From Trichlorobacter lovleyi SZ (GTDB lineage: Bacteria > Desulfobacterota > Desulfuromonadia > Geobacterales > Pseudopelobacteraceae): DNA of 32,000 bases. The stretch spans positions 630,001 to 662,000 of the forward strand of contig NC_010814.1 in NCBI RefSeq assembly GCF_000020385.1, in the 5' to 3' direction. Below are positions 6,201-27,358 of this stretch, in pieces. The position numbers were made by a program, and so were the translations under genes. The notes under the pieces were generated by a model that did no database searches, was not told where the DNA came from, and saw only the letters and a list, made by a program, of their open reading frames with translations. Within the stretch, counting starts at the first letter, position 1. The number at the start of each line of letters is the position of its first letter.

Positions 6201-6403
6201 ACCAGGTACTGCAGAATACCCAACTGCTGATCAATGAAAGCTATTTTGAACGGATGATGATGCCGCTGGTGATCAACCAGTTCCAAACCCAGCACAAGAT
6301 CAACCTTACCCCCGCTGCATCCCGCAGCATTAACCGTCTGGTGGTAAGCGAGTACCAGCATGAATTTGTTTCAGGAACCAGAACAGGAGTAGCAGCTTGG
6401 TAA
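3281..6403 (+). CDS. hsdR: Type I restriction enzyme R subunit (HsdR)
   Basis: 1040 aa. Nuclease motif RPDIILLINGMPLVFIEVKK. SF2 helicase motifs HTQGSGKT, FLDEVHRS, GLTGTP and QALTRVNRP. A long coiled-coil C-terminal domain is typical of HsdR. Confidence 0.9.
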   Translation: MIFSEDSRVKIPCILHLVRLGYQYLSLKNAVWDEETNIFPELFRRSIARINPGTGNDEIQRLLDDARLSLDNEDLGKAFYEKLTDRSGIRLIDFENFTNNSFHVVTELTYKNGDDEFRPDIILLINGMPLVFIEVKKPNNQEGVLAERNRIIKRCQNKKFRRFINITQLMVFSNNMEYDDGSSQPIEGAFYASPSYDEPIFNYFREEELLSLETLLAPEEDELENAVLKDNNLNVIKHSPEFLSNKSPDTPTNRICTSLFSRERLSFLLQYAFAYLNESEGLHKHVMRYPQLFATKAIETKLDSGVRKGIIWHTQGSGKTALAYYNVRFLTDYFQRRSIIPKFYFIVDRIDLLIQAQREFTSRGLIVHTISTREDFRRDIKTIQVIHNHTGNPEITVVNIQKFEDDPGVVRVEDYDISIQRVYFLDEVHRSYNPKGSFLANLSQSDQNAIKIGLTGTPLLGDDYNSRALFGDYIHKYYYNASIADGYTLRLIREEIATNYKLSLQEALAAVELQQGDLDKKLIFAHPRFVEPMLDYIITDFEKSRGALNAPGIGAMVICDSAEQARQMFEQFQSRFAPSEVIVQPPCTSDSYATDLPLAADPAPTYAGQQKQATRVKTAALILHDVGNKNERKQWMEDFKAGKIEILFVYNMLLTGFDAKRLKKLYLGRVIRKHNLLQALTRVNRPYKEFRYGYVVDFADIRKEFDATNRAYFEELQDELGDELEHYSHLFKSPEEIEQEIEQIKDILFRFDTENAESFSRQISQIQDRNVVLALKKALADARSLYNLIRLQGEYAFLQQLDFQKLNQLYRETCNHLDLLNLKESIENSADTTNLLNVALEEILFMFTKVKEEELVLADRLKNCLRQTREALAGNFDQQDPKFISLKEELERLFKKKNLSEVTQEEMNANIGALSQIHEQVKELNRQNNQLRAKYQGDAKYTRIHKRLLESNILSETERRIFEALTGVKQEADDQVLQNTQLLINESYFERMMMPLVINQFQTQHKINLTPAASRSINRLVVSEYQHEFVSGTRTGVAAW

Positions 6404-8034
6404 CCCAGGACTTTGAAAAACAGACCAGACAACTGATTGACAGCCTCAAAGGGATTTGCGCTGCCTATGGCCTGGGCAATGACGGCAATGAATTCAAGAT
6501 CATCACCCAGGTTTTTCTCTACAAATTTTTAAACGATAAATTCGCCTTTGAGGCCAAGCGGATTAACCCGAAACTTGCCAAGGCAGAAAACTGGGAACAG
6601 GCCATCAGCACCCTGCAACCCGATGCGCTGGAGATGCTGCAACTGCAGATGGGGGCAGACACCGCCCGCCTTAAGCCGGAGCATTTTGTCGCCCACCTCT
6701 TCAGCCGCCAGAATGCGCCGGAGTTTGCCAAGCTGTTTGACGATACCCTGCGTGACATCGCCGTTAGCAACAACGATATCTTTGCGGTCAAGACCGACGG
6801 TGGGACCAAGGTTACCCTGTTTGATCGGGTCAGCGAATTCATCACCGATGTTTCCAAGCGGGATGCCTTCTGCCGGGCCGTGATTAACAAGCTGGTGGAG
6901 TTCAGTTTTGAACGGATCTTTACCCAGAAGTATGATTTTTACGCGGCCCTGTTTGAATACCTGATCAAAGATTACAACAAGGACAGCGGCGGCAAGTATG
7001 CCGAGTACTACACACCCCATGCTGTGGCAAAGATCATGGCCGCCATTCTGGTGCCGGAGGAACAGCGGGGCACGGTTAAAAACGTCAGTTGTTATGACCC
7101 TTCGGCAGGCTCCGGCACCCTGCTAATGAACCTGGCCCACGCCATTGGTGAGCAACGCTGTGCGATCTTCTCGCAGGATATTTCGCAAAAATCATCAAGC
7201 CTTTTGCGCCTGAACCTGATCCTGAACAATCTGGTCCACTCCATCCCCAACATCATTCAGGGCAACACCTTGACGCACCCGTATCATCGAAACGGCAAGG
7301 CGCTGAAGAAGTTTGACTACATCGTATCCAATCCACCCTTTAAGATGGATTTCAGTGATTTCAGAAACGAGCTGGATGCAACGGAGCATCAGGAACGCTT
7401 CTTTGCCGGGGTGCCTAACATCCCCAAGCAGGCTGTTGAAAAAATGGCCATCTACCAACTCTTTCTGCAGCATATCATCTACTCGCTGAAACCAGGTGGT
7501 AGGGCAGCGGTGGTGGTCCCCACCGGCTTTATTACCGCCCAATCGGGTATTGACCGGAAGATCCGCGAAAAGCTGGTGGATGAGCGGATGCTGGCCGGAG
7601 TGGTCTCCATGCCGAGCAACATCTTTGCCACCACCGGCACCAACGTCTCCATCCTGTTCATTGATGCCAGCAACAAGGACAAGGTGGTGTTGATTGACGC
7701 CTCCAGCCTGGGCACCAAGGTCAAGGACGGCAAGAACCAGAAGACCCTGCTTTCAGAGGAAGAGGAAGACCGGATCATCGCCACCTTCAACAGCAGGCAG
7801 GCTGTGGAGGATTTCTCGGTGGTGGTGGAGTATCAGGAGATCGTTGCCAAGAACTACAGTCTCAGTGCTGGCCAATACTTTGAGGTGAAGATTGAGTATG
7901 TGGACCTGACCCCGCAGCAGTTCAGCGCTAAAATGCAGGGCTTTACAGAAAATCTGGATAAGCTTTTCAAGGAATCAGGGCAGTTAGAAAAGGAGATCAG
8001 GAAACAGTTGGCGGGGTTAAAGTATGCAGAATAA
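6397..8034 (+). CDS. hsdM: Type I restriction-modification N6-adenine DNA methyltransferase (HsdM)
   Basis: TTG start 8 nt after an AGGAG, overlapping the hsdR stop. SAM motif DPSAGSGTLL and catalytic motif SNPPF. Confidence 0.9.
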   Translation: MVTQDFEKQTRQLIDSLKGICAAYGLGNDGNEFKIITQVFLYKFLNDKFAFEAKRINPKLAKAENWEQAISTLQPDALEMLQLQMGADTARLKPEHFVAHLFSRQNAPEFAKLFDDTLRDIAVSNNDIFAVKTDGGTKVTLFDRVSEFITDVSKRDAFCRAVINKLVEFSFERIFTQKYDFYAALFEYLIKDYNKDSGGKYAEYYTPHAVAKIMAAILVPEEQRGTVKNVSCYDPSAGSGTLLMNLAHAIGEQRCAIFSQDISQKSSSLLRLNLILNNLVHSIPNIIQGNTLTHPYHRNGKALKKFDYIVSNPPFKMDFSDFRNELDATEHQERFFAGVPNIPKQAVEKMAIYQLFLQHIIYSLKPGGRAAVVVPTGFITAQSGIDRKIREKLVDERMLAGVVSMPSNIFATTGTNVSILFIDASNKDKVVLIDASSLGTKVKDGKNQKTLLSEEEEDRIIATFNSRQAVEDFSVVVEYQEIVAKNYSLSAGQYFEVKIEYVDLTPQQFSAKMQGFTENLDKLFKESGQLEKEIRKQLAGLKYAE

Positions 8035-9292
8035 TGCGTGGCAATATGTACGGGGTGAAAATTATTGCAGCAAGGTTACCGATGGAACACATGACACTCC
8101 GGAGCAAGTTGAACGTGGTAAATACCTTATAACCTCGAAGCATATCAAGGGAGACGAAATAGATTTTGATAGTGCTTATTTCATAACGGAAGAAGACTTT
8201 AACGAAATCAACAAACGTAGCAAAGTAGATCAATGGGACGTTATCATAAGTATGATTGGAGCCTATTGTGGATTCTGTTTTATAGAAAGCAACTCAGATA
8301 TTGATTATGCCATTAAGAATGTTGGTCTTTTTAAAACTGGAAATGAAATAAACGCAAAATGGCTTTACTATTACCTTAATTCTTCAGTAGGCAAGGCTCA
8401 TCTTGATGCCGCAAAAAGTGGCTCCACTCAGCCATACATTGCTTTGGGCGCATTAAGAGAACTACCGATACTTACCCCGAAAGACGAAATTACCAAAAAA
8501 AAGATAGTCAATGTTTTAGACAGCATTGATAAAAAGATACGCAATAATAACCGCATCAACGCCGAGCTGGAGGCGATGGCCAAGACCCTGTACGACTACT
8601 GGTTTGTGCAGTTCGACTTCCCCGACGCCACCGGCAAGCCCTACAAATCATCCGGTGGGAAGATGGTCTACAACACCACACTAAAACGGGAGATCCCGGT
8701 GGGGTGGAATGACGGCACATTGGATGACCTTGGACAAATTGTCGGTGGCAGTACGCCGTCCACAAAAAAGGAAAGCAATTTCACCGCTAGCGGAACGCCG
8801 TGGATTACTCCGAATGATTTATCGGATAACCAGGGGTACAAGTTCATTACTCGTGGAGCACAAGACGTATCTGACTCAGGGATCAAAGATGCCTCGCTGA
8901 AAAAATACCCGGCTGGGACGGTATTGCTCAGTTCACGGGCACCAATTGGCTACATGGCCATTGCGCGGGAAGAGTTGACCACTAACCAGGGTTTCAAGTC
9001 CTTTATTCCGACAAACGATTATTCTTCTGCTTTCATCTACTACACCCTGAAAAACTCACTGAAAACCATAGTTCAACATGCTTCCGGTTCAACCTTTAAG
9101 GAAGTCTCCGGCGCTGTTTTGAAAACTGTGAAAATCTGCCTCCCTGCTTCTGGCGTTGTTGAACAGTTCACCAATGCAGTTGCCCCTACCTTCAAACGTC
9201 AAGATCTGCTTGAACAAGAAAACCAGCACCTCACCCAACTCCGCGACTGGCTGCTGCCGATGCTGATGAACGGCCAGGTAACGGTGGCGTAA
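8024..9292 (+). CDS. hsdS: Type I restriction-modification specificity subunit (HsdS)
   Basis: 422 aa, overlapping the hsdM stop. Two variable target-recognition domains are separated by the conserved spacers NNRINAELEAMAKTLYDYWFVQFDFP and QHLTQLRDWLLPMLMNGQV. Confidence 0.85.
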   Translation: MQNNAWQYVRGENYCSKVTDGTHDTPEQVERGKYLITSKHIKGDEIDFDSAYFITEEDFNEINKRSKVDQWDVIISMIGAYCGFCFIESNSDIDYAIKNVGLFKTGNEINAKWLYYYLNSSVGKAHLDAAKSGSTQPYIALGALRELPILTPKDEITKKKIVNVLDSIDKKIRNNNRINAELEAMAKTLYDYWFVQFDFPDATGKPYKSSGGKMVYNTTLKREIPVGWNDGTLDDLGQIVGGSTPSTKKESNFTASGTPWITPNDLSDNQGYKFITRGAQDVSDSGIKDASLKKYPAGTVLLSSRAPIGYMAIAREELTTNQGFKSFIPTNDYSSAFIYYTLKNSLKTIVQHASGSTFKEVSGAVLKTVKICLPASGVVEQFTNAVAPTFKRQDLLEQENQHLTQLRDWLLPMLMNGQVTVA

Positions 9293-9303
9293 GGAGTGTA
9301 CAG

Positions 9304-10770
9304 ATGACTATAGAACGTGCCTCAGAATATCTGCAAAGTCTGCTCAGCGAACTACTTAAACTACCTGCTGAAACCGAATGGGTAGAATTTAAGCACAATA
9401 ACGACAACCCTGACGAGATCGGCGAATACCTGTCTGCCCTGGCCAATGCTGCTGCTCTTACGGGTAAGGTACATGCCTATCTGCTCTGGGGGGTGAACAA
9501 TGAGACTCATGAGATTATCGGCACATGCTTTGACCCTGCCAAGACCAAGGTCGGCAACGAAGAGCTGGAAAGCTGGCTACTGCGGCTACTGAGCCCCAAG
9601 ATCAATTTCCGCTTTTATCCCATCCAGGCTGCTGGCAAACCGGTTGTGCTGCTGGAGATCGGCGCTGCCTTCCGCCACCCGGTGCAGTTCAAGAACACTG
9701 AATTTATCCGGGTCGGCTCGTACAAGAAGAAGCTCAAGGACTTCCCCGAGAAGGAGCGCGATCTGTGGCGGGTATTCGACCGAATTCCGTTTGAGAGGGA
9801 AATCGCTGCGGAGAACGTAACCATTGATGAGGTTCTGAAGTTGCTTGATTATCCGGCTTATTTCGACTTGCTCTCACTGCCACTGCCTGAGGGCCGTGAT
9901 GGCATTCTGGCCGCTTTGGCCGCCGATGAGATGATTGCACCGGGCAAGGGTGGTAAATGGAACATCGCCAATCTGGGAGCGGTGCTTTTTGCCAAGCGGC
10001 TTGCCGATTTCCGTCCCCTACGGCGTAAGGCGATGCGGGTTGTTTTATATAAAGGAGAAAGCCGCGTTGAAACGGTGCGTGAGCAGGAGGGTACAAAGGG
10101 GTACGCAGCAGGTTTTGAGGGACTGATCGGTTTTGTCACTAATCTGCTTCCCAGCAATGAGGTGATCGGCCAGGCCTTGCGCAAGGAAGTGCCGATGTTT
10201 CCAGAACTCGCCATCCGCGAGCTAGTTGCCAACGCCATTATTCACCAGGATTTTCACCTCACGGGCACCGCGCCGATGGTGGAGATCTTCTCCAATCGCA
10301 TGGAAATCTCCAACCCCGGCTTACCACTGGTGAAGACCGACCGTTTTTTGGATAGCCCGCCAAAATCACGTAATGAATGCTTGGCTTCATTCATGCGCCG
10401 CATCGGCGTCTGCGAAGAGCGTGGGAGCGGTGTGGATAAAGTAGTATTTCAGACAGAGTTTTATCAACTCCCAGCTCCGCTGTTTGAAATAACCGATGAA
10501 CATACACGCGCCGTCCTTTTTGCTCACCGGGAGTTCAGAGACATGCACAAGGAAGACCGTATCCGGGCGTCCTACCTGCATGCCTGCCTGCGATATGTAC
10601 AGCGTGATTTTATGACCAATACCACCCTACGGGAGCGCTTCGGGGTTGAAGAAAAGAACAGCTCAATGGTCTCACGAATTATCAAGGATACTATTGGGGC
10701 TGGTCTGATCCGCTGCCATGATGAAAGTGTTGGTAGTAAAGCCAGAAAATATCTGCCGTGGTGGGCGTGA
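9304..10770 (+). CDS. AlbA_2 (Schlafen-like DNA-binding) plus HATPase_c_4 domain protein, often annotated RecG-like or ATP-binding regulator
   Basis: AAGGAG Shine-Dalgarno. The N-terminal ETEWVEFKHN...YLSALANA..GKVHAYLLWGV matches AlbA_2. The central IRELVANAIIHQDF...MEISNPG matches a GHKL-type HATPase_c_4 domain. It is co-directional with hsdS and starts 11 nt after it. Confidence 0.65.
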   Translation: MTIERASEYLQSLLSELLKLPAETEWVEFKHNNDNPDEIGEYLSALANAAALTGKVHAYLLWGVNNETHEIIGTCFDPAKTKVGNEELESWLLRLLSPKINFRFYPIQAAGKPVVLLEIGAAFRHPVQFKNTEFIRVGSYKKKLKDFPEKERDLWRVFDRIPFEREIAAENVTIDEVLKLLDYPAYFDLLSLPLPEGRDGILAALAADEMIAPGKGGKWNIANLGAVLFAKRLADFRPLRRKAMRVVLYKGESRVETVREQEGTKGYAAGFEGLIGFVTNLLPSNEVIGQALRKEVPMFPELAIRELVANAIIHQDFHLTGTAPMVEIFSNRMEISNPGLPLVKTDRFLDSPPKSRNECLASFMRRIGVCEERGSGVDKVVFQTEFYQLPAPLFEITDEHTRAVLFAHREFRDMHKEDRIRASYLHACLRYVQRDFMTNTTLRERFGVEEKNSSMVSRIIKDTIGAGLIRCHDESVGSKARKYLPWWA

Positions 10771-15060: not shown

Positions 15061-15144
15061 GATATACGAAAATACTCAACTACCCGCGAGGGTAGGGCGG
15101 AAAACCCACGGGTCTCTCTGAGACAGCCGGGCTACCGAAATATC
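15061..15144 (+). promoter_or_regulatory. GEMM-I class cyclic-dinucleotide riboswitch aptamer (c-di-GMP or 3'3'-cGAMP)
   Basis: P1 is GAUAU/AUAUC. One hairpin is ACUACCC-GCGA-GGGUAG with a GNRA loop. The junction GGCGGAAAACC resembles ACGCAAAGCC. The 3' part CACGGGUCUC..GAGACAGCCGGGCUACCGAAA matches the recalled GEMM-I core (GGGUC...GACAGCC.GG.U.CCGAA). Confidence 0.75.
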
Positions 15145-15176
15145 GATTTATCGATAGGCAGGTACCCGGCTTTTTT
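15126..15176 (+). terminator. Riboswitch expression-platform terminator
   Basis: gccgggctacc (15126-15136, shared with the aptamer 3' strand) pairs with ggtacccggc (15161-15170). Six T residues follow. Confidence 0.75.
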
Positions 15177-15300
15177 GCGTCTTGTGCCGCAGAGAAACGG
15201 GGGGATCTACACAATCAAGCAAAGGAGAAGACAACCAAAGATGGGAATAGCATTCAGTAACGCATTCAACAATTCCGGAGCAATGGGAAAGGAGCAGGGT

Positions 15301-17379
15301 ATGAAACCTCTGATGACAAAGCTGGGCACTATGATAGGGGGGCTGATTCTCGCATTTTCGGCACTTGTACTTGCCGGATGTGGCGGCGGGGGTAACAGTC
15401 CCGGGGTCTCTTCGCAGGTGGTAACGGGAACTGCGGCTGTCGGTACGCAGCTGTCCGGCCAAGTGACCCTGAAGGATGCATCAACACCGTCAAAGCAAAA
15501 AACTGCCGTGATTGGTAGTGATGGCTCCTTTGCCTTTGATGTTACCGGCATGAAGGCCCCCTTCATCATTCAGGCAACCGGCAGCGCAAATGGTCAGAAT
15601 CATACCTTGCTCTCGTTTGCATCGGGTACCGGCATTGCCAATGCCAACCCGCTGTCCCATGCACTGGTGACACTTGCCTGGGGCAGCGCTAATTCCGGAG
15701 ATGTCTTTACTAATCCGGATGAGCAGAAGCTCAGGAAGATTCAGGACGGGTTAACGGCTGCTACTCAGGACCTCTTGATGATGCTCAACCCGCTGCTTGA
15801 CCTGTATGGCGCTGCAGGAAAAAATCCGATCAGCTCTCCCTATCGTGCCGACCATAGCGGGCTTGACGGCATGTTTGACTTCGTCACCGTCGATATCACA
15901 GGCGGTACCCTGACGGTTTCCAATAGAGGCACCAATGCCCCGATCTTCTCCTGCGCCATCAACAACATCAACAGCGGGACCTTTAACGCCAACAATATGC
16001 CGCACAGGATGACCGTGCCGGCTGCCCCGACCAACTTGACTGCCGTTGGCGGTGCAGGGCAGCTGACACTTACCTGGAGTGCCGTCAGTAATGCCGCCTC
16101 CTATACGATTTACTACGCCACTACCAGCGGTGTAACCCCGGCAAACGGGATAAAGGTTGCAAATGCCACCAGTCCGGCGGTCCTGAGCGGTCTTGCTGAT
16201 GCAACTACCTACTACTGCGTTGTTACAGCCGTAAACAGTGCCGGAGAAAGCGTCGCCTCTACCCAGGCCACGGCCACGACAAACGTTGCCGCCCCGGTTA
16301 TTCCGGCGGCACCGGGCGGTCTGATTGCCACTGGCGGCACCAGGCAGGTCAGTCTTTCGTGGAGTGCGGTAAGCAATGCAACTTCGTATAATGTCTATTA
16401 CGCAACCAGCAACGGCGTGACAAAGGTGAATGGCACAAAGGTTTCAAATGCAACCAGCCCGCTGGTGTTGAACGGGCTGGCTGATGCAACCAGCTATTAC
16501 TGTATCGTGACCGCCGTTAACAGTGCCGGCGAAAGTGCCGCTTCCGTGCAGGCTGCCGCGACAACCCTGCCTTCAACACCGCCGCCTGCACTACCGGCAA
16601 CGCCGTCAAACCTGGTTGCCGCCGGCGGCACCAACCAGATCACACTTTCCTGGTCTGCTGCCAGTAATGCAACCTCCTATAACCTCTACTGGTCAGCCGC
16701 TTCAGGTGTTACAACCGCAACCGGCACCAAGGTCTCAGGCGTGACCAGCCCCTACGTAAAAACCGGTCTGGCTGCCGGGACCACCTATTACTTTGTCGTA
16801 ACCGCGGTCAATAGCGTGGGGGAAAGCAGTGCCTCGGCCCAGGCATCGGCAACCACCAGTGCTCCGCCTCCAACGGTGCCGGCTGCCCCAACCGGCGTGA
16901 CTGCCACCGGTGGAGCCAATCAGGTAAGTCTTGCCTGGTCGGCCGTGTCCGGAGCAACCTCCTACAACCTCTACTGGTCCACGGCATCCGGGGTGACCAA
17001 GGTCAACGGGACAAAACTGACAAATGTGACCAGTCCGTATCTTCATAGCGGTCTGGCAGCCGGTACCAGCTATTACTATATCGTCACCGCAGTGAACAGT
17101 ACTGGAGAAGGGGCCGCATCAGCCCAGGTCTCGGCAACCACCAGTGCTCCTTCACTCAGCTGTGGCACCTGTCATGCCATTCCACCTCAGCTTGGTCAGC
17201 ACGATTTCCACTCAGGTGTGGGGATCGGGTGTGTAACCTGTCATGGAAGCGGTTACAGCACAACTACGGTTAATGCCGCTACCCATATGAACGGTGTCAA
17301 GGACCTCAGTGCAACAATCGGCTGGAATGCAGCCGGCAGGAACTGCACAAATTCATGCCATGGGCGCAAAACATGGTGA
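15301..17379 (+). CDS. Lipoprotein with four fibronectin-III-like repeats and a C-terminal c-type haem-binding domain
   Basis: The start was set at the ATG at 15301, after an AAGGAG. The signal peptide ends in the lipobox LAGC. Four repeats of about 96 aa follow (..LTWSAVSNA.SY.IYY..SGVT...G.KV...TSP....GL...T.YY..VTAVNS.GES..S). The C terminus has CGTCH, CVTCH and CTNSCH. Confidence 0.8.
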   Translation: MKPLMTKLGTMIGGLILAFSALVLAGCGGGGNSPGVSSQVVTGTAAVGTQLSGQVTLKDASTPSKQKTAVIGSDGSFAFDVTGMKAPFIIQATGSANGQNHTLLSFASGTGIANANPLSHALVTLAWGSANSGDVFTNPDEQKLRKIQDGLTAATQDLLMMLNPLLDLYGAAGKNPISSPYRADHSGLDGMFDFVTVDITGGTLTVSNRGTNAPIFSCAINNINSGTFNANNMPHRMTVPAAPTNLTAVGGAGQLTLTWSAVSNAASYTIYYATTSGVTPANGIKVANATSPAVLSGLADATTYYCVVTAVNSAGESVASTQATATTNVAAPVIPAAPGGLIATGGTRQVSLSWSAVSNATSYNVYYATSNGVTKVNGTKVSNATSPLVLNGLADATSYYCIVTAVNSAGESAASVQAAATTLPSTPPPALPATPSNLVAAGGTNQITLSWSAASNATSYNLYWSAASGVTTATGTKVSGVTSPYVKTGLAAGTTYYFVVTAVNSVGESSASAQASATTSAPPPTVPAAPTGVTATGGANQVSLAWSAVSGATSYNLYWSTASGVTKVNGTKLTNVTSPYLHSGLAAGTSYYYIVTAVNSTGEGAASAQVSATTSAPSLSCGTCHAIPPQLGQHDFHSGVGIGCVTCHGSGYSTTTVNAATHMNGVKDLSATIGWNAAGRNCTNSCHGRKTW
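16018..17160 (+). repeat. Four tandem coding repeats (period 285-291 nt) encoding the FN3-like modules
   Basis: Repeat starts (CCG GCx xCx CCx ...) are at 16018, 16303, 16594 and 16879. Confidence 0.8.
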
Positions 17380-17393
17380 TACGGTTTCTGTGA

Positions 17394-17439
17394 GATACAA
17401 AACGGGCGCCCCGGAAAATCGGGGCGCCCGTTTTGTATC
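17394..17439. terminator. Bidirectional terminator between the cytochrome gene and the convergent deacylase operon
   Basis: Perfect 20-bp stem gatacaaaacgggcgccccg / cggggcgcccgttttgtatc with loop gaaaat. Confidence 0.85.
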
Positions 17440-17458: not shown

Positions 17459-18403
17459 TTAGGACTTCGGGTTGATTCTCAGCAACAGATCACCTTCAAA
17501 CAACAGGGGATGCCGGCGGATACCGGTCAGAAGGCCGTTGGCCGGTGCCTCTACCTTTTCAATCACGTTGCCGCTGAAGCTGTCGTAGATGTACCCCAGC
17601 TCCTGCCCCGTGCGTACCCAACGCCCTACCTGACAATCCGAGACAAAGGTGCCGGCCTTGCCGGCATAGAGCCGCTTTGAGCTGCCCTGCCGGAAATGGC
17701 AGATATCTTCGTCCCCTTCCGCCAGACTGACCCCTGCAAGGATGCCGGTCTGTCCCAGAAATGCAACCAGTCCCCGGAAGACCTGCTGACAATGCCCGAG
17801 CTGGACGGTGCCGCCCTGGCCGACCCGCAGCAGAAAACTCTGGCCGGGCCAGACCTGCCAGGCATGCATCAGGGTGGTGGTAAAGACCGGCGATATACTG
17901 CGCTCCATGATGGCCGTCAGTCCAAAATGACGGGCGGTTGCGCGTTGGGCGTCGCTGGGGCTGTAAAGCCGCACCTGGGGTAGTTCCTCGAAATCGACGC
18001 CGGAAGTGTGCAGATCCACCCGGTATTCCGCCTTCTTGGTGGCCTCCAGCACGGCCAGGGCGATCCGTTGGGTGGTCTCGCCGCTGACATTGCCGGGAAA
18101 CATCCGGTTCATGTCGCTCTTGTCAAAGGGCCAGGTGCGGGAACGCAGATTGATTCCCAGCACGTTGACCGCCGGGATGATCAGCACCTTCTTGAGCAGC
18201 TTCAGGCCGGGGTGTTTGCCGGCTTCCACGCCGTTCAGGAAATCAGCCAGACGGGAGAGGATAAAGGTGCCGTTCAGTTCGTCGCCATGCAGGCCTGCCA
18301 CAAAGGCAGCTGCCGGATGAGCGGCCTTGGGGCCGATCTCATGGCAGGGGATGTCAAAACTGTCCCGTACCGGCGCGGTCATCAACAGCAGATCGCGTTT
18401 CAT
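17459..18403 (-). CDS. Succinylglutamate desuccinylase/aspartoacylase (AstE/AspA, M14-like) family zinc deacylase
   Basis: 314 aa. GLHGDELNG is the HxxE zinc motif, and VDLHTSG supplies the third histidine. The start overlaps the upstream stop (ATGA at 18400-18403). Confidence 0.7.
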   Translation of the reverse strand: MKRDLLLMTAPVRDSFDIPCHEIGPKAAHPAAAFVAGLHGDELNGTFILSRLADFLNGVEAGKHPGLKLLKKVLIIPAVNVLGINLRSRTWPFDKSDMNRMFPGNVSGETTQRIALAVLEATKKAEYRVDLHTSGVDFEELPQVRLYSPSDAQRATARHFGLTAIMERSISPVFTTTLMHAWQVWPGQSFLLRVGQGGTVQLGHCQQVFRGLVAFLGQTGILAGVSLAEGDEDICHFRQGSSKRLYAGKAGTFVSDCQVGRWVRTGQELGYIYDSFSGNVIEKVEAPANGLLTGIRRHPLLFEGDLLLRINPKS

Positions 18404-19362
18404 CGGGCACCTCCCTTGCGGGCCATGACCCGTGCCATCAGCGAGCCTTCGTAGACCAGCGGATACTCCCGCAGGGTAAACAGGATGCCGTCCACCGGTG
18501 AACGGACCTCGGACAATATCGCACCGTGGAATGGCGAGACAATCGTGCCCAGCAGCTCACCCCGCCGCAGATCGGTCCAGTGGGCGGTTGCCGGTACAAA
18601 CATGCCGGAGGTCTGGGCATTCAGGTAATGTACGTTGCTGTCATCGGCCACCAGCGGGTGATGGGTCAGCGCTGGCAGCGCCACTTCCGGTGCCAGCACT
18701 CCCAGCCCCTGCCAGAGGTGCAGCAGGCCAATCGTCAGCTGTTCACAGTAATCCGGGGTTAATCGCATTCCCACCCCCATTTCCACCACCAGGCAGGGGG
18801 TGCCTCGGCTGTTAAGGCTGTGGGCCACGGTGGCCTCCAGCACGGTGGCAGCGCCATGGATCCAGATCAGGTCAAGGTTGGCCTGCTCGGCCAGCGGCAC
18901 CAGCGTGTCGCTGAATTCGCTGTTGATTCGCACCTGGGGGATCTCACGCAGGTAGATGTTGCTGGCATGGATATCCACCACCAGGCTGGCGCCGTCCAGT
19001 GCGGTCATGATTGCCGCTGCCAGCCGTTTGGGCAGATCACCCTGTTGACTGCCGGGGAAGGAGCGGTTCAGGTCGCTGTCAAAGACCGGTACCGAACGGG
19101 TCAGGGTGTCCAGCCCCAGGGGGTTCAAGGCGGGGTAGAGCTCAATCTGACCCAGCAGATGCTGCGGATTGCTGCGCTGCAGCTGATCCAGCCAGGCTGC
19201 CAGACGATGGCAGACATAGAGCCCTTCCAGTTCATCACCGTGAATACCGGCGGTGACCGCTACACGGGGGCCGTCCCCGCCGGTATAGACCGTGCGGCGG
19301 ATATCAAGCGTCTCCCGGTACGGCATGGCCAGGGAGAAGATGGTTTCTGTGGTTTGGGTCAT
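18400..19362 (-). CDS. Succinylglutamate desuccinylase/aspartoacylase family zinc deacylase (paralog)
   Basis: 320 aa with GIHGDELEG and VDIHASN. It shares its layout with the downstream paralog. Confidence 0.7.
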   Translation of the reverse strand: MTQTTETIFSLAMPYRETLDIRRTVYTGGDGPRVAVTAGIHGDELEGLYVCHRLAAWLDQLQRSNPQHLLGQIELYPALNPLGLDTLTRSVPVFDSDLNRSFPGSQQGDLPKRLAAAIMTALDGASLVVDIHASNIYLREIPQVRINSEFSDTLVPLAEQANLDLIWIHGAATVLEATVAHSLNSRGTPCLVVEMGVGMRLTPDYCEQLTIGLLHLWQGLGVLAPEVALPALTHHPLVADDSNVHYLNAQTSGMFVPATAHWTDLRRGELLGTIVSPFHGAILSEVRSPVDGILFTLREYPLVYEGSLMARVMARKGGAR

Positions 19363-19369
19363 AGCGTGC

Positions 19370-20236
19370 TCATTGGTTGGTAATGGTCAGATTGACCTGT
19401 GGATGGGTACCGGCATTGCCCCCCTTGAAACTGCCCCGCTGCGGGGCAGCGTCGTAGGAGTCGCGCCCGACGGCAACCGCCACATAACGGTCATTGGCCA
19501 GCAGGTTATGCACCGGATCAAAGCCGATCCAGCCGCCTCCCGGTACCAGTACCTCGGCCCAGGCGTGGGTGGCGATCAGCTCTCCTTCGGCCAGGATACC
19601 GGGATCCATGTAGCCCACGACATAGCGGCTTGGCAGATGCCAGGAACGGGCAACGGTGATGAAAAGGTGGGCAAAATCCTGACAGACACCGGCCCGGTGG
19701 CGAACCGCATCCAGCAGATCATTATGCACAGCGGTTGAGCCGGACTCATAGGCAAGCACCTTGGGTATCCAGGCCATCAACTCCAGCAGGCTGTTCAGGG
19801 GTAGCTGCTCTGCTTCATAACGTGGCAGGGCGCAGTCCAGTTCAGCGGCCAGCTTCATCACCGCCGGCGTCAGGCTGCTGCGGTGCAGCAGGTAATCGTA
19901 CAACGCCGGGGTCTGGCGCAGTTCCCGGGCATACCATTCCTTTTGCTGATGCGCAGGTACCGGTTCAAAATCAAAGGGGTTTTCCCGCAGGGTTTCCACC
20001 TCGGCAGTCAGGCGGGTGATCAGGCAGGTGTGGGGAGCGGTGACGCAGAAATAATCTACTCCATTGCCGAAGTAATCCTGATAGCTGTGCCGCTCTGCTG
20101 CCGGTTCAAGCTCAATGCGATGTGAGATCAGGCGCTGTCCCGCATCCTGACGGGGGGTCAGACGCAGCTCAAGGTGGTGTTCACGGACTGGCGTTGGATA
20201 GTCCAGTATGGTTTCGTGCTCGATCAGGTAACGCAT
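19370..20236 (-). CDS. Transglutaminase-like cysteine protease/ligase family protein with an N-terminal Bact_transglu_N domain
   Basis: 288 aa. The catalytic context is GVCQDFAHLF (Cys), THAWAEV (His) and GFDPVHN (Asp). An AAGGAG Shine-Dalgarno is present. Confidence 0.8.
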   Translation of the reverse strand: MRYLIEHETILDYPTPVREHHLELRLTPRQDAGQRLISHRIELEPAAERHSYQDYFGNGVDYFCVTAPHTCLITRLTAEVETLRENPFDFEPVPAHQQKEWYARELRQTPALYDYLLHRSSLTPAVMKLAAELDCALPRYEAEQLPLNSLLELMAWIPKVLAYESGSTAVHNDLLDAVRHRAGVCQDFAHLFITVARSWHLPSRYVVGYMDPGILAEGELIATHAWAEVLVPGGGWIGFDPVHNLLANDRYVAVAVGRDSYDAAPQRGSFKGGNAGTHPQVNLTITNQ

Positions 20237-20248
20237 CGGGTAAACTCC

Positions 20249-21190
20249 TTACTGAAAGAACTCTTCTGCCAGCGCATTATGGAACCCGGCCAATAAACTG
20301 AGTACCTGCTCCAGAAATTCATGTAGACCGTTGGTGAAGACCGTTTCCCCGTTTGAGGATGCCAGTAGTGACTGCAGGGCGGCAAATGCCGCGGCGGTCT
20401 TTTCCTTGCCCTCCAGCCCGATGTTGGCCAGGGCAGCTCCGGCACGGTCAACGGAAAAGACCAGCGAGCGGGGGAAGTCATGCTCAAAGACGGCAAAGTC
20501 AACCACCGCCTTGGGTTCAAAGCCGCTCTGGTTGGTGCGCCGGAACGCCTCAAAACCGGACAGAGATTTAAGCAGGGCAGCCCATTGGTAGTAGTCAAGT
20601 GCGGAGCCCACCAGATGAATATCCGGCAGAATGATATGGTATTTGACATCCAGAATCCGGGCGATCATATCGGTCCGTTCCACGCAGCCACCCAGCTGGC
20701 AGAAGGCATAGGCCTCGCCCCGCATCATGGTGGCCGCCAACAGACCGTTGAAACGTGCCACCTGATTACGCAGCTCCACAAAGAGGTTACTGGCCTTTTC
20801 CAGGGTGATGCTGCCCCGTAACCGCTCGTTGTAGGTCATCCAGATATCATTGACCGCCTCCCACATCTCCTTGGAGATCCGGTCCCGGGCCACCCGGGCG
20901 TTTTCCCGGAACAGCCGCAGACAGGTGCGGATTGAGTTGTTGTTGGTGCGGCCACCGCAGACAAACTGCAGCACCCGCTGGGTGGTGATGGCATCATCGC
21001 CGTACAGCTCGACATATTGGGGCAGAGCAGCGGTTATCTCCAGAACCGGTCGCCATTTTTCCTCTTCACCCATATCCTCTTCCGCCTCCACCAGATAGAG
21101 CAGGTTGATCTCCATCAGACGGGCGGTTTCGCCGGCTCTTTCCAGATATCGGGCCATCCAGTACATTGAATCAGCTATGCGGCTTAACAT
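20249..21190 (-). CDS. Alpha-E domain protein (COG2307)
   Basis: The start was set at the ATG at 21190, after an AAGAGG. The MLSRIADSMYWMARYLERAGETARL opening is characteristic of this family. Confidence 0.75.
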   Translation of the reverse strand: MLSRIADSMYWMARYLERAGETARLMEINLLYLVEAEEDMGEEEKWRPVLEITAALPQYVELYGDDAITTQRVLQFVCGGRTNNNSIRTCLRLFRENARVARDRISKEMWEAVNDIWMTYNERLRGSITLEKASNLFVELRNQVARFNGLLAATMMRGEAYAFCQLGGCVERTDMIARILDVKYHIILPDIHLVGSALDYYQWAALLKSLSGFEAFRRTNQSGFEPKAVVDFAVFEHDFPRSLVFSVDRAGAALANIGLEGKEKTAAAFAALQSLLASSNGETVFTNGLHEFLEQVLSLLAGFHNALAEEFFQ

Positions 21191-21219
21191 ATCAGTAACC
21201 TCTTTGCTGCGGCTGCGAT

Positions 21220-21318
21220 AAAAGTCCATCTGCTTCGTTGCAGTCGTCGCAGGCCATTCAACGTAGCGCTGCTACGCCTCACACCCTGCTCCTCCTGCGC
21301 CTGGCATCTGGAGCTTTT
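21220..21318 (-). repeat. Structured intergenic repeat, copy A' (element sense is the minus strand)
   Basis: In element orientation, the outer stem is AAAAGcTCCA/TGGACTTTT and the middle stem is GCAGG/CCTGC. The apical hairpin is GGCGTAG-cagcg-CTACGTT. It aligns block by block with copy C. Confidence 0.65.
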
Positions 21319-21357
21319 CTCACAACCGTCTTGTTTATAATCATTCCGTTAACTGAT

Positions 21358-21469
21358 GTGCATAGTTTTCGCAAGGTCAAGGCGGTCGAGGCTTTGGGCG
21401 GAGGCGTACATCCAGTACGCCGCACAACCTAAGCTGAAGACCAACGTAGAGATTGCGGAAACTATGTGC
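21358..21469 (+). repeat. Structured intergenic repeat, copy A (element sense is the plus strand)
   Basis: The outer stem is gtgcatagttttcgc/gcggaaactatgtgc. The conserved block caaggtcaaggcgg is present. The middle stem is GCTTtGG/CCtAAGC and the apical hairpin is ggcgtac-atcca-gtacgcc. The conserved tail is ccgcacaacc..ccaacg.agagattgcggaaa. Confidence 0.7.
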
Positions 21470-21471
21470 CT

Positions 21472-22926
21472 CTACTCAGCCAGGACCCAGGTGTCTTTGC
21501 TTCCACCACCTTGAGAAGAGTTCACCACCAGTGAGCCTTTACGCAAGGCCACCCGCGTCAGTCCGCCAGGCACAACCTGAATATCCTCGCCATAGATCAC
21601 AAACGGCCGCAGATCCAGGTGGCGGGCCTCCAGCTCACCATCCATGTAACAGATATGCCGTGAGAGGTAGACCACCGGCTGGGCGATGTAGTTGCGGGGA
21701 TTTTCCAGCACCCGGTCCATAAACTCCTTGCGCAGGGCCGGGGTGGAGGAGGGCCCCATCAGCATGCCGTAGCCGCCGGATTCACTGACCGCCTTGACCA
21801 CCATCCGCTCCATGTTGTCAAAAACATATTCCCGGTCGGTCGCATTGGTCATCTGGTAGGTGGGTACGTTTTTCAGAATCGGCTGCTGCCCAAGATAGTA
21901 ACGGATGATGTCCGGCACAAAGGGGTAGACCGCCTTGTCATCGGCAATGCCGCTGCCCGGTGCATTGACGATGGCGACATTGCCTGCCCGCCAGGCATTG
22001 ATTACCCCGGCAATCCCCAGTGATGAGTCGGAGCGGAAGATCAGCGGATCAAGGTAGTCGTCATCAATCCGGCGGTAGATCACATCCACCCGCTTCAGCC
22101 CTTTGGTGGTCTTGAGATAGACGATGTCGTTGATGGTGACCATGTCGCGCCCTTCAGCCAGCTCGATCCCCATCTCCTTGGCCAGGAAGGTGTGCTCAAA
22201 ATAGGCAGAGTTGTAGATGCCGGGGGTCAGCAATACAATTTCAGCTGTTCCTTTGCCGCGGGGTGAGAGGCAGCGCAAGGCATCCAGCAGCAGTGACGGG
22301 TAGTGCTCAACCCGGCGTACCCGGTATTTGTTGAAAAATTCCGGCAGAATGCGCCGTTCAATTACCCGGTTTTCAATCATGTAGGAGACACCGGAGGGGG
22401 TACGCAGGTTGTCTTCCAGAATCAGGAAATCACCCTGTTCATCACGGATAATGTCAATGCCGCTGATATGGGTATAGATGCCTCGGGGCGGGACAATGCC
22501 AACGATCTCACGCCGGAAGTCCTTGCCCTGGTAGATCAGTTCCGGCGGAATCACACCGTCCTTGATGATTTTCTGTTCGCCGTAGAGGTCTTCCAGAAAC
22601 AGGTTCAGCGCCTTGACCCGCTGCTTGAGGCCGGATTCAATCCGGCTCCACTCCGGTGCGGTGATGATGCGGGGGATCAGGTCAAAGGGCCAGATCCGCT
22701 CGATCCCTTCTTCGCTCTCGCCGTAGACCGTAAAGGTGACCCCTTCGGTCTGCAGTGCCAGCTGGGATTCGTGATCTTTGGTCTCCAGTGCATTGTTGCC
22801 GGTGGCGCGGATATGATCCCAGAGCAGGCGGTAATGGTCACGGGGACTGAAGTCGTCGGCATAAAACTCGTGGTAGGACGTCTTGGGCCCGGAGCTGGCG
22901 GGGCTGGAGAGTGGCGGCATGTACAA
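21472..22926 (-). CDS. Circularly permuted type-2 ATP-grasp protein (COG2308)
   Basis: 484 aa with an AGGAGG Shine-Dalgarno 7 nt upstream. Long family-typical blocks are present (ERIWPFDLIPRII, LEDNLRTPSGVSYMIENR, GNVAIVNAPGSGIADDKAVY, GGLTRVALRKGSLVVNSSQGGGSKDTWV). Confidence 0.85.
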   Translation of the reverse strand: MYMPPLSSPASSGPKTSYHEFYADDFSPRDHYRLLWDHIRATGNNALETKDHESQLALQTEGVTFTVYGESEEGIERIWPFDLIPRIITAPEWSRIESGLKQRVKALNLFLEDLYGEQKIIKDGVIPPELIYQGKDFRREIVGIVPPRGIYTHISGIDIIRDEQGDFLILEDNLRTPSGVSYMIENRVIERRILPEFFNKYRVRRVEHYPSLLLDALRCLSPRGKGTAEIVLLTPGIYNSAYFEHTFLAKEMGIELAEGRDMVTINDIVYLKTTKGLKRVDVIYRRIDDDYLDPLIFRSDSSLGIAGVINAWRAGNVAIVNAPGSGIADDKAVYPFVPDIIRYYLGQQPILKNVPTYQMTNATDREYVFDNMERMVVKAVSESGGYGMLMGPSSTPALRKEFMDRVLENPRNYIAQPVVYLSRHICYMDGELEARHLDLRPFVIYGEDIQVVPGGLTRVALRKGSLVVNSSQGGGSKDTWVLAE

Positions 22927-22986
22927 CCTCCTACATTAAACCGGATCTGCAGGCTATGCAGCGCTGCATAACCTGTTGCAGAAGTA

Positions 22987-23003
22987 AAGCATAGGCTGTG
23001 CCA
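22987..23003 (-). promoter_or_regulatory. sigma54 promoter for the ATP-grasp operon
   Basis: The minus strand reads TGGCACAGCCTATGCTT. It matches the nifH promoter at 16 of 17 positions. Confidence 0.75.
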
Positions 23004-23118
23004 AGGCGTGAGTGTCTGAAATTGCTTAGAGAATGTGCGCTATAGATGGAAGGGGGTTGTTGGAGATGCCTGTCTACTCACCAGTTTTGTTTTTGGAGTG
23101 TATAAATAACAAGCAAAT

Positions 23119-23150
23119 CCAGCGGCTGGCCGATATCGGACAGCCGCTGG
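23119..23150 (-). terminator. Intrinsic terminator after nifK
   Basis: The stem ccagcggctg/cagccgctgg is 10 bp, with an inner ccgatatcgg palindrome. A U-rich tract follows on the minus strand (auuugcuuguuauuuau). Confidence 0.75.
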
Positions 23151-27341: not shown

Positions 27342-27358
27342 AAGCATAGGCCGTGCCA
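27342..27358 (-). promoter_or_regulatory. sigma54 promoter for nifHDK
   Basis: The minus strand reads TGGCACGGCCTATGCTT, with GG-N10-GC spacing. The leader is about 140 nt. Confidence 0.8.

Follow-up and report, generated by a model that had tools for sequence, protein, structure and literature searches.

The Anbu operon, reportedly described by Valas and Bourne in 2008 and by Iyer et al. in 2009, combines genes for a circularly permuted ATP-grasp (cpATP-grasp) ligase, an alpha-E protein, a transglutaminase-like enzyme and Anbu. The triad formed by the first three genes is widespread, yet its substrate has stayed elusive since 2008-2009. Here we analyze a five-gene operon in a 32,000-nucleotide (nt) stretch of the Trichlorobacter lovleyi SZ chromosome (NC_010814.1, positions 630,001 to 662,000; the window), which encodes this triad and two AstE/AspA-type paralogues, A and B, from within a nitrogen fixation (nif) gene cluster. 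The operon reads as a self-contained variant of the Anbu operon, with a predicted sigma54 promoter in front and the AstE/AspA pair replacing the Ntn-hydrolase Anbu. The variant offers two clues to the substrate. Its hydrolase partner appears to be of carboxypeptidase type and to need a free alpha-carboxylate, which would favor, as the product of the ligase, an amide with a free amino acid at its end. Nitrogen control is apparently general, and the Geobacterales represent its extreme, with integration into the nif supercluster. The operon introduces no new principle, but it makes a long-standing question accessible to testing.

Already published are the triad, the prediction that it is an amidoligase system, and its nitrogen regulation. 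In nitrogen-limited Burkholderia cenocepacia, few genes depend on NtrC and sigma54 as strongly as I35_5080-83, the triad being down by log2 6-9.4 in an ntrC mutant (PMC5491218). In Pseudomonas putida, PP_2688 (ligase) and PP_2685 (Anbu) are up by log2 ~4 (~16-fold) on nitrate versus ammonium, and a PP_2688 promoter fusion was induced 3.7-fold upon nitrogen depletion (PMC8050072). Both Anbu structure papers cite the induction of Anbu under nitrogen limitation, and the ATP-grasp protein of the Anbu operon releases inorganic phosphate from ATP (PMC6376114, PMC5666114). The nif genes of Geobacter are driven by RpoN and the NtrC-family activator GnfM, a subset of them also through GnfR antitermination (PMC2995071).

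Like the Anbu operon, the T. lovleyi operon has the first three genes in the same order, with a very highly conserved ligase, and it shares nitrogen/sigma54/NtrC control, which is experimental in P. putida and B. cenocepacia (PMC8050072, PMC5491218) and predicted here. Unlike the Anbu operon, it is without Anbu; two AstE/AspA-type paralogues, only one of them with the catalytic Glu, stand in its place, and the Geobacterales cassette is part of the nif supercluster. The second point of comparison is the Geobacter RpoN/GnfL-GnfM nif regulon (PMC2995071). The -24/-12 promoter of the cassette is approximately identical to that of nifH, and the cassette sits among nif operons that each have such a promoter (nifH, nifEN and nifX), whereas the cassette genes are not known nif genes. 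Because the GnfR/ANTAR leader terminator is absent, the cassette would fall in the GnfM-only class.

The original prediction, made from the sequence of the window, held the combination of nif-embedded location, nifH-like promoter and hydrolase pair to be undescribed. This does not stand as worded, as nitrogen control of the triad is already published and the five-gene cassette is widespread rather than peculiar to this nif cluster. The AstE-type A/B pair as partner of the triad, the degenerate site of B and the embedding in nif in Geobacterales were not found in the searchable literature, which did not cover the 2009 survey of Iyer et al.

Architecture of the operon

The five genes run in one direction on the minus strand (22920-17459) and are placed between nifK and a strong terminator (Table 1). 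The alpha-E and transglutaminase-like genes are 12 nt apart and the transglutaminase-like gene and A 7 nt apart, while the stop of A and the start of B overlap as ATGA at 18403-18400; the ligase and alpha-E genes are separated by 281 nt (21191-21471). Coordinates and domains thus bear out the prediction of a co-directional five-gene operon with an ATGA overlap and short gaps. The ligase gene itself was correctly called, but its start had been put at 22926, a TTG that is merely the start of the mechanical open reading frame (ORF). The start is the ATG at 22920 behind AGGAGG, and the public gene call likewise gives 482 amino acids (aa).

Pfam domain searches agreed with the proposed identity of the triad and of the two AstE/AspA paralogues. 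An Anbu gene is absent from the operon by domain search, positions four and five being AstE_AspA_cat proteins. An Rfam scan found no known RNA within the operon, and base composition does not hint at a recent foreign source. The identical ligase protein is present on one metagenome-assembled genome (MAG) and several metagenome contigs, with the layout unchanged, and the closest named relatives are Trichlorobacter and Geobacteraceae.

Terminators lie at both ends of the operon, as had been proposed, with z scores given in Table 1. The upstream one, behind nifK, separates nifHDK transcription from the operon promoter, and the operon is therefore expected to be its own transcription unit.

A predicted sigma54 promoter that closely matches the nifH promoter

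The -24/-12 element of the operon, TGGCACAGCCTATGCT, occupies 23003-22988 and begins 84 nt before the ligase ATG. Exact matches to TGGCAC-N6-TGCT occur only twice in the window, as TGGCACAGCCTATGCT and as TGGCACGGCCTATGCT, the latter in front of nifH. The 19-mer CTTGGCAC[A/G]GCCTATGCTT is likewise confined to these two promoters (0 expected from shuffles), which agree at 18 of 19 positions, in line with the earlier description of the operon promoter as a near-copy of the nifH promoter, flanks included. This likeness exceeds the sigma54 consensus, since the agreement covers the non-consensus spacer (GCCTA) and both flanks. Beyond the 19-mer, the regions upstream of the operon and of nifH gave no convincing alignment.

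The nifH leader carries a CAGGCAANGGCGCC-type motif at 27298-27285 plus a terminator hairpin. The GnfR/ANTAR motif CAGGCAANGGCGCC is absent from the operon leader, and its only other close match in the window, at 21986-21973, lies inside the ligase coding sequence.

As an observation on nifH itself, its leader (27298-27245, minus strand) reads AAGGCAACGGCGCC followed by the hairpin GGCGCC...GGGGCGCCGUUUUG, an arrangement that fits the GnfR/ANTAR antitermination signal of Geobacter sulfurreducens nifH.

Table 1. Coordinates of the operon and its control elements in the window
Feature	Coordinates	Strand	Remarks
Circularly permuted ATP-grasp ligase (COG2308 type)	21472..22920	-	482 aa; ATG start with AGGAGG in front
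alpha-E protein (COG2307 type)	20249..21190	-	313 aa, all-helical; PF04168, E 2e-85
Transglutaminase-like Cys-His-Asp enzyme	19370..20236	-	288 aa; Bact_transglu_N PF08379 and Transglut_core PF01841
AstE/AspA-family (M14-type) zinc hydrolase A (predicted)	18400..19362	-	320 aa; PF24827, E 1.5e-24
AstE/AspA-family paralogue B	17459..18403	-	314 aa; PF24827
Predicted sigma54 (-24/-12) operon promoter, CTTGGCACAGCCTATGCTT	22987..23005	-	GG and GC in canonical register, TGGCAC-N5-ATGCT
nifH sigma54 promoter, TGGCACGGCCTATGCT	27343..27358	-	For comparison; followed by a leader with GnfR-type motif and terminator
5' leader of the operon, modest hairpin	22921..22986	-	-23.1 kcal/mol, z -2.0, not significant; no terminator
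Ligase/alpha-E spacer	21191..21471	-	Two long hairpin repeats, ~21466-21360 and ~21326-21210
Bidirectional intrinsic terminator	17394..17439	.	21-bp stem, -45.3 kcal/mol, z -9.5; end point of both the operon and the convergent fn3/cytochrome gene
nifK terminator hairpin, then U-tract AUUUGCUUGUUAUUU	23119..23150	-	z -4.8

Conservation of the cassette and its linkage to nif

A scan of a single genome for each species, with aligned hydrolase A sequences as the query, gave 80 loci, which were mapped with the proteins of the window. The order ligase, alpha-E, transglutaminase-like enzyme, A and B is intact in 36 of the 37 Geobacterales-like loci with a visible upstream region and in at least 14 of the 25 other loci with a visible upstream region. 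Carriers outside the Geobacterales are MAGs labelled Myxococcota, Binatia, Spirochaetales and Gammaproteobacteria, together with several unclassified MAGs. The position of alpha-E after the ligase is conserved in all triad-bearing loci, and B stands next to A in 76 of the 80. Sequence conservation is unusually strong: ligase identity is 88-93% across Geobacterales and 69-77% in other phyla; that of hydrolase A ranges from 61 to 93% among loci.

Genes related to nif lie near the cassette in 22 of the 27 Geobacterales loci of at least 15 kb, in two arrangements. The common one runs gnfR-like, draG, nifB, GNAT, nifV, p112, p141, cassette, cowN ... nifHDK, and the subclade of the window (L001, L007, L008 and L039) has nifHDK-cassette-nifEN-nifX. 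Other Trichlorobacter relatives carry the cassette between fabH and menaquinone genes, and Oryzomonas carries it after dnaKJ. In the 18 large loci from other phyla, no nif gene lies within 10 kb of the cassette, and no conserved or informative flanking genes were found around the cassettes of other phyla or around loci that have the A/B pair without the triad. In terms of the neighborhood survey suggested along with the original prediction, the triad with an AstE-like pair recurs widely, but the cassette is linked to nif only in Geobacterales, where the link is a robust one.

Two further genes accompany the cassette in the Geobacter clade. A conserved 141-aa protein (motif PRPGCGGGGLAW) is encoded directly before the ligase in ~25 loci of this clade (for example L022, 6000-6425, plus strand) and has weak macro-domain/DarG-like similarity (PDB 7OMU, E 0.003; NCBIfam DarG, E 3e-7, below the cutoff). 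Its gene is preceded by a conserved 112-aa ORF with no known domain.

Predicted nitrogen control across loci

We scored -24/-12 elements against a background, taken from all 2.4 Mb of locus sequence, of 0.056 hits per kb per strand. Of 52 non-redundant loci, 22 have a strong sigma54 element no more than 130 nt ahead of the ligase gene, versus 0.38 expected. The positive loci span several unrelated lineages, and the sequences of their elements differ. Orthologous promoters are found at -53 to -98 in L007, L008, L009, L010, L037 and L039, and cassettes that are not near nif (L009, L010 and L089) have retained a sigma54 promoter of their own. NtrC-type dyads were recognized in two gammaproteobacterial loci, at -156 in L076 (12/14) and at -181 and -140 in L081 (11/14 and 12/14). 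They sit 80-120 nt upstream of the sigma54 element, and such scores occur 10 times per 1.24 Mb of background.

The recurrent sigma54 elements, the two loci with NtrC dyads and the published regulation of homologues lend indirect support to the prediction that the operon is controlled by nitrogen limitation. From sequence, comparison and the literature together, the operon is probably switched on by nitrogen limitation, and across phyla, regulation by nitrogen status seems to be common to the system as a whole. The five cassette genes are also probable members of the Geobacterales nitrogen fixation regulon; for nif biology, this flags five conserved, unstudied genes as candidates for that regulon.

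Several observations on individual loci may be added. The nifH promoter sequence of the window is also that of nifH in L008 and L031. In L007, the nifH promoter (2102) and the cassette promoter (-53) both have the spacer CCCTA, whereas those of the window and of L008 both have GCCTA. That the nifH and cassette promoters of a genome change together suggests a common constraint or sequence exchange, on a small sample. In L010, three direct repeats, TAGGCGCC(AAGACGATTATTTCT), lie ~200 to 60 nt upstream of the cassette promoter at a spacing of 23 nt and may form an activator-binding array. In the main Geobacter clade, an apparently conserved sigma54-like sequence, TGGCGGGGGTCTTGCA, ~150 nt ahead of the ligase gene was rejected as a promoter; by alignment and ORFs, it is inside the 141-aa macro-domain gene and encodes GCGGGGLAW.

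The cassette proteins

The ligase matches CP_ATPgrasp_2 (PF14403, E 7e-161) and PF04174 (E 5e-143), and 243 of the 482 columns of its alignment are near-invariant. It aligns with PDB 3N6X at E 7e-165, a structural-genomics entry without assigned function that is annotated as a putative glutathionylspermidine synthase. For alpha-E, no solved homologue was found. Its AlphaFold2 model (predicted local distance difference test, pLDDT, 86.7) had no fold relative in the PDB by Foldseek (best E 0.6, template modeling score <= 0.25) and gave no functional lead. Numerous Arg, Glu, Asp, His and Tyr positions of alpha-E are invariant, which hints at a surface for binding or catalysis and not at a scaffold alone. 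In the transglutaminase-like protein, the triad C185, H224 and D240 is kept in 63-64 of 64 orthologues; its nearest structure is 3ISR, a putative cysteine protease.

A and B share the Pfam AstE_AspA domain, the HxxE...H pattern and N-R-x-F-P-G with AstE, aspartoacylase and DoeB, and A also has their catalytic Glu. They differ from these enzymes in coming as an A/B pair, in scoring far below the cutoffs and in the degenerate site of B. A is only distantly similar to 2QJ8, 3CDX, DoeB and aspartoacylase, and neither protein reaches the curated NCBIfam cutoffs: scores of 49.8 and 54 bits compare with the 402.7 required for DoeB, and 19.9 with the 180 required for aspartoacylase.

In A, the zinc ligands H41, E44 and H132 are conserved, as is the N99-R100-x-FPG motif, through which members of this superfamily hold the alpha-carboxylate of their substrate, and the general-base Glu, E194, is present in 78 of 80 orthologues; A is predicted to be catalytically active. 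In B, the zinc ligands H39, E42 and H132 and NRxFPG are conserved or nearly so across 80 orthologues, but the position of the catalytic Glu is occupied by R in 41, Q in 29, E in 7 and T in 3 of them. B is doubtful as an enzyme because R or Q replaces the general-base Glu in most orthologues, and it is probably not a second enzyme but an inactive partner subunit. The proposal of two deacylases with HxxE motifs therefore keeps its motifs, present in both proteins, and probably loses its second enzyme. By their ATGA overlap, A and B form a translationally coupled pair, and this overlap and their near-constant adjacency point to a putative A/B complex in which one subunit is active and the other degenerate.

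A putative amide write/erase module and its alternatives

ATP-grasp ligases form an acyl-phosphate on a carboxylate and then add an amine, while carboxypeptidase-type hydrolases cut amides whose leaving group keeps a free alpha-carboxylate. On this basis, we read the whole operon as a nitrogen-limitation-induced amide write/erase module that varies the Anbu operon, a reading to which we would give somewhat better than an even chance. RpoN and a GnfM-type enhancer-binding protein would fire the nifH-like promoter under nitrogen limitation, with no GnfR antitermination checkpoint. The cpATP-grasp ligase, with alpha-E, would turn a carboxylate into an acyl-phosphate and then join an amine, most plausibly an amino acid that retains its free alpha-carboxylate, such as Glu or Asp. 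The transglutaminase-like enzyme might deamidate, transamidate or cleave the same substrate, and A, with its N-R-x-F carboxylate-binding motif and the inactive B as partner, would take the C-terminal residue off again. The module would thereby attach an amide-linked tag or conjugate to a peptide, protein or metabolite and remove it again, as one element in the economy of the nitrogen-starved cell. In the sister operon, Anbu would fill the role of eraser or processing enzyme, and the Geobacterales would have drawn a general nitrogen-stress cassette into their nif supercluster.

Similar logic is known from other systems. TTL/TTLL ligases and M14 cytosolic carboxypeptidases (CCP), which are the writers and erasers of tubulin tyrosination and glutamylation, likewise pair an ATP-grasp amino acid ligase with an M14-type metallocarboxypeptidase-like hydrolase that needs a free C-terminal carboxylate; bacterial RimK belongs to the same comparison. 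The suggested likeness is one of mechanism only, namely the logic of a reversible amino acid tag; in the cassette, by contrast, the ATP-grasp is circularly permuted and the alpha-E and transglutaminase-like components are obligatory. The actinobacterial Pup-PafA-Dop system is important for amino acid recycling under nitrogen starvation. It offers a functional analogy only, in having an ATP-dependent carboxylate-amine ligase and a deamidase/hydrolase, but the folds are unrelated (its ligases are glutamine synthetase-like) and the cassette encodes no tag protein.

The predicted induction when fixed nitrogen is scarce makes protein or peptide turnover and nitrogen recycling the most economical guess at a purpose. 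The fullest form of the proposal would be reversible amino acid tagging, with the ligase and alpha-E as writer, the transglutaminase-like enzyme as deamidase or transferase and A/B as eraser. Proteins would be marked for turnover or regulation under nitrogen limitation, with Geobacterales targets that include components of nitrogen fixation or assimilation. In this specific form, the proposal is unlikely. If it were true, the cassette would be a bacterial counterpart of TTLL/CCP or Pup/Dop signaling.

Several points weigh against the write/erase module. Its chemistry is read from enzyme families only, and the putative A/B complex only from the overlap and co-occurrence of the two genes. Nine gammaproteobacterial loci have the A/B pair without an adjacent triad, so the pair can function without the ligase, or can at any rate be encoded separately from it. 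Among the proteins of the Anbu operon, no peptidase activity was found for Anbu, and no stable complex formed (PMC6376114). On the side of regulation, no enhancer-binding site was identified upstream of the operon promoter, no shared dyad could be established in this genome, and no activator site (GnfM or other) common to the nifH and operon promoters was convincing, although conserved blocks exist upstream of nifH. L060, L063 and L065, from other phyla, have no recognizable sigma54 element before the cassette. No promoter was found directly upstream of the ligase in the main Geobacter clade either; control of the cassette there is inferred from its being co-directional with nifV-p112-p141, and some loci of this clade have sigma54-like elements ahead of p112 or p141.

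Among the alternatives, the one that survives best is a small-molecule pathway, which we consider possible but doubtful. Here the ligase would make and A/B would degrade a low-molecular-weight amide that serves to scavenge nitrogen, to buffer or to protect against osmotic stress; candidates are dipeptides, gamma-glutamyl or N-acyl amino acids and conjugates of amines, and no protein would be tagged. The characterized proteins nearest to A/B, namely DoeB, aspartoacylase and succinylglutamate desuccinylase, have small N-acyl amino acids as substrates, and the annotation of 3N6X points the same way, as do the lack of a conserved precursor-peptide ORF in the cassette, the nine pair-only loci and the failure of Anbu-operon proteins to show stable complexes or peptidase activity (PMC6376114). 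Yet the similarity to the characterized deacylases is far under the family cutoffs, no conserved transporter or metabolic genes stand beside the cassette outside Geobacterales, and both the transglutaminase-like Cys protease and the proteasome-like Anbu of the sister system indicate peptide or protein substrates.

It is quite unlikely that the Geobacterales cassette is instead a nif-specific regulator that reversibly modifies nitrogenase, PII or glutamine synthetase in the manner of DraT/DraG. That 22 of the 27 large Geobacterales loci have it inside the nif supercluster, beside draG, nifV and cowN, would fit such a role, as would the macro-domain gene directly upstream in the main clade, the near-copy of the nifH promoter in the clade of the window and the L007 spacer that changes in step with its nifH. 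However, the cassette recurs at 61-77% identity, with sigma54/NtrC signals, in lineages without nif within 10 kb (0/18), Trichlorobacter relatives have it between fabH and menaquinone genes, and P. putida and B. cenocepacia, which do not fix nitrogen, also have the homologous triad under nitrogen control.

A nitrogen storage polymer, in which the ATP-grasp enzyme would build a cyanophycin-like or poly-acidic peptide and the hydrolases would mobilize it, is very improbable. ATP-grasp enzymes do make cyanophycin and poly-Glu tails, and the cassette pairs its ligase with exopeptidase-like hydrolases and has a link to nitrogen status, but induction by nitrogen limitation has the wrong sign for building a store, the ligase is without the Mur-ligase-like second domain of CphA, and the cassette contains no primer or granule-associated genes. 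Equally remote is an unrelated housekeeping module brought beside nifK by rearrangement, with a promoter likeness due to the sigma54 consensus: the position relative to nif does vary by clade, with the linkage lost in some Trichlorobacter and Oryzomonas genomes, and the likeness to the nifH upstream region is limited to 19 nt, but that match extends to the non-consensus spacer (GCCTA) and both flanks, the nif linkage is kept in two independent arrangements, sigma54 elements across phyla are far above chance, and the nitrogen regulation of homologues is experimentally published.

For finding the substrate of the putative write/erase module, those Geobacterales that can be grown with and without ammonium should be a convenient system.

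Repeat hairpins in the ligase/alpha-E spacer

The spacer noted earlier at 280 nt is present (281 nt), and its content can now be given as repeated hairpin elements. It folds at -111.6 kcal/mol (z -4.4). Element 1 has a 75% identical copy, a structured hairpin of ~100 nt on the minus strand, in the nifH-nifD gap (21461-21366 versus 26311-26213) and also occurs in the ligase/alpha-E gap of L007, L026 and L031. Copies of element 2 lie in the ligase/alpha-E gap of L012, L014 and L026, and L012 has one more, in inverted orientation, between A and B. Both hairpins are supported by compensatory changes, seen in 8 of 30 predicted pairs of element 1 and 13 of 42 of element 2. The gap ranges from 13 to ~310 nt among loci. 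Because the elements recur elsewhere and the gap length varies, they are best regarded as repeats colonizing intergenic sites of operons, not as a conserved part of the cassette. The spacer contains no conserved ORF, no Rfam match and no predicted promoter-like or terminator-like site; its small ORFs, considered as precursor peptides, were rejected as not conserved. We speculate that the hairpins could stabilize the upstream mRNA segment, as comparable elements do elsewhere. The hairpin in the nifH-nifD gap may likewise affect the relative mRNA stability of nifH and nifDK.

Other loci and neighboring genes

The loci with the pair alone (L055, L056, L067, L069, L073 and L082-L085) belong to Plasticicumulans, Competibacteraceae and others. 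Their neighbors are unrelated (aldehyde dehydrogenase, ABC ATPase, HD phosphohydrolase and GNAT), and only two weak candidate sigma54 promoters precede them.

In the window, nifH, nifD and nifK lie directly upstream of the operon, with a fused nifEN and nifX downstream. Four minus-strand -24/-12 elements stand ahead of nifH, the cassette operon, nifEN and nifX. The nifEN element is TGGCACGCCCAGTGCA (13833-13818, minus strand) and that of nifX is TGGCATGTTCTGTGCT (3018-3003, minus strand); the true starts are at ~13771 for nifEN and ~2966 for nifX, the mechanical ORFs beginning too far upstream in both cases.

Between the operon and nifX are a convergent fn3/CxxCH gene, the fused nifEN and a type I restriction-modification system. 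The first of these (15175-17379) encodes a protein with four fibronectin-III domains and with CxxCH motifs at its C terminus; the gene runs toward the operon terminator from the opposite side and is directly preceded by a cyclic di-GMP-I riboswitch (RF01051, 44.2 bits; 15064-15139, plus strand). The restriction-modification system (3281-10770, plus strand), located between nifEN and nifX, comprises hsdR, hsdM, hsdS and a 488-aa ORF. This block is an insertion in the genome of the window, because L007 has nifX straight after nifEN.

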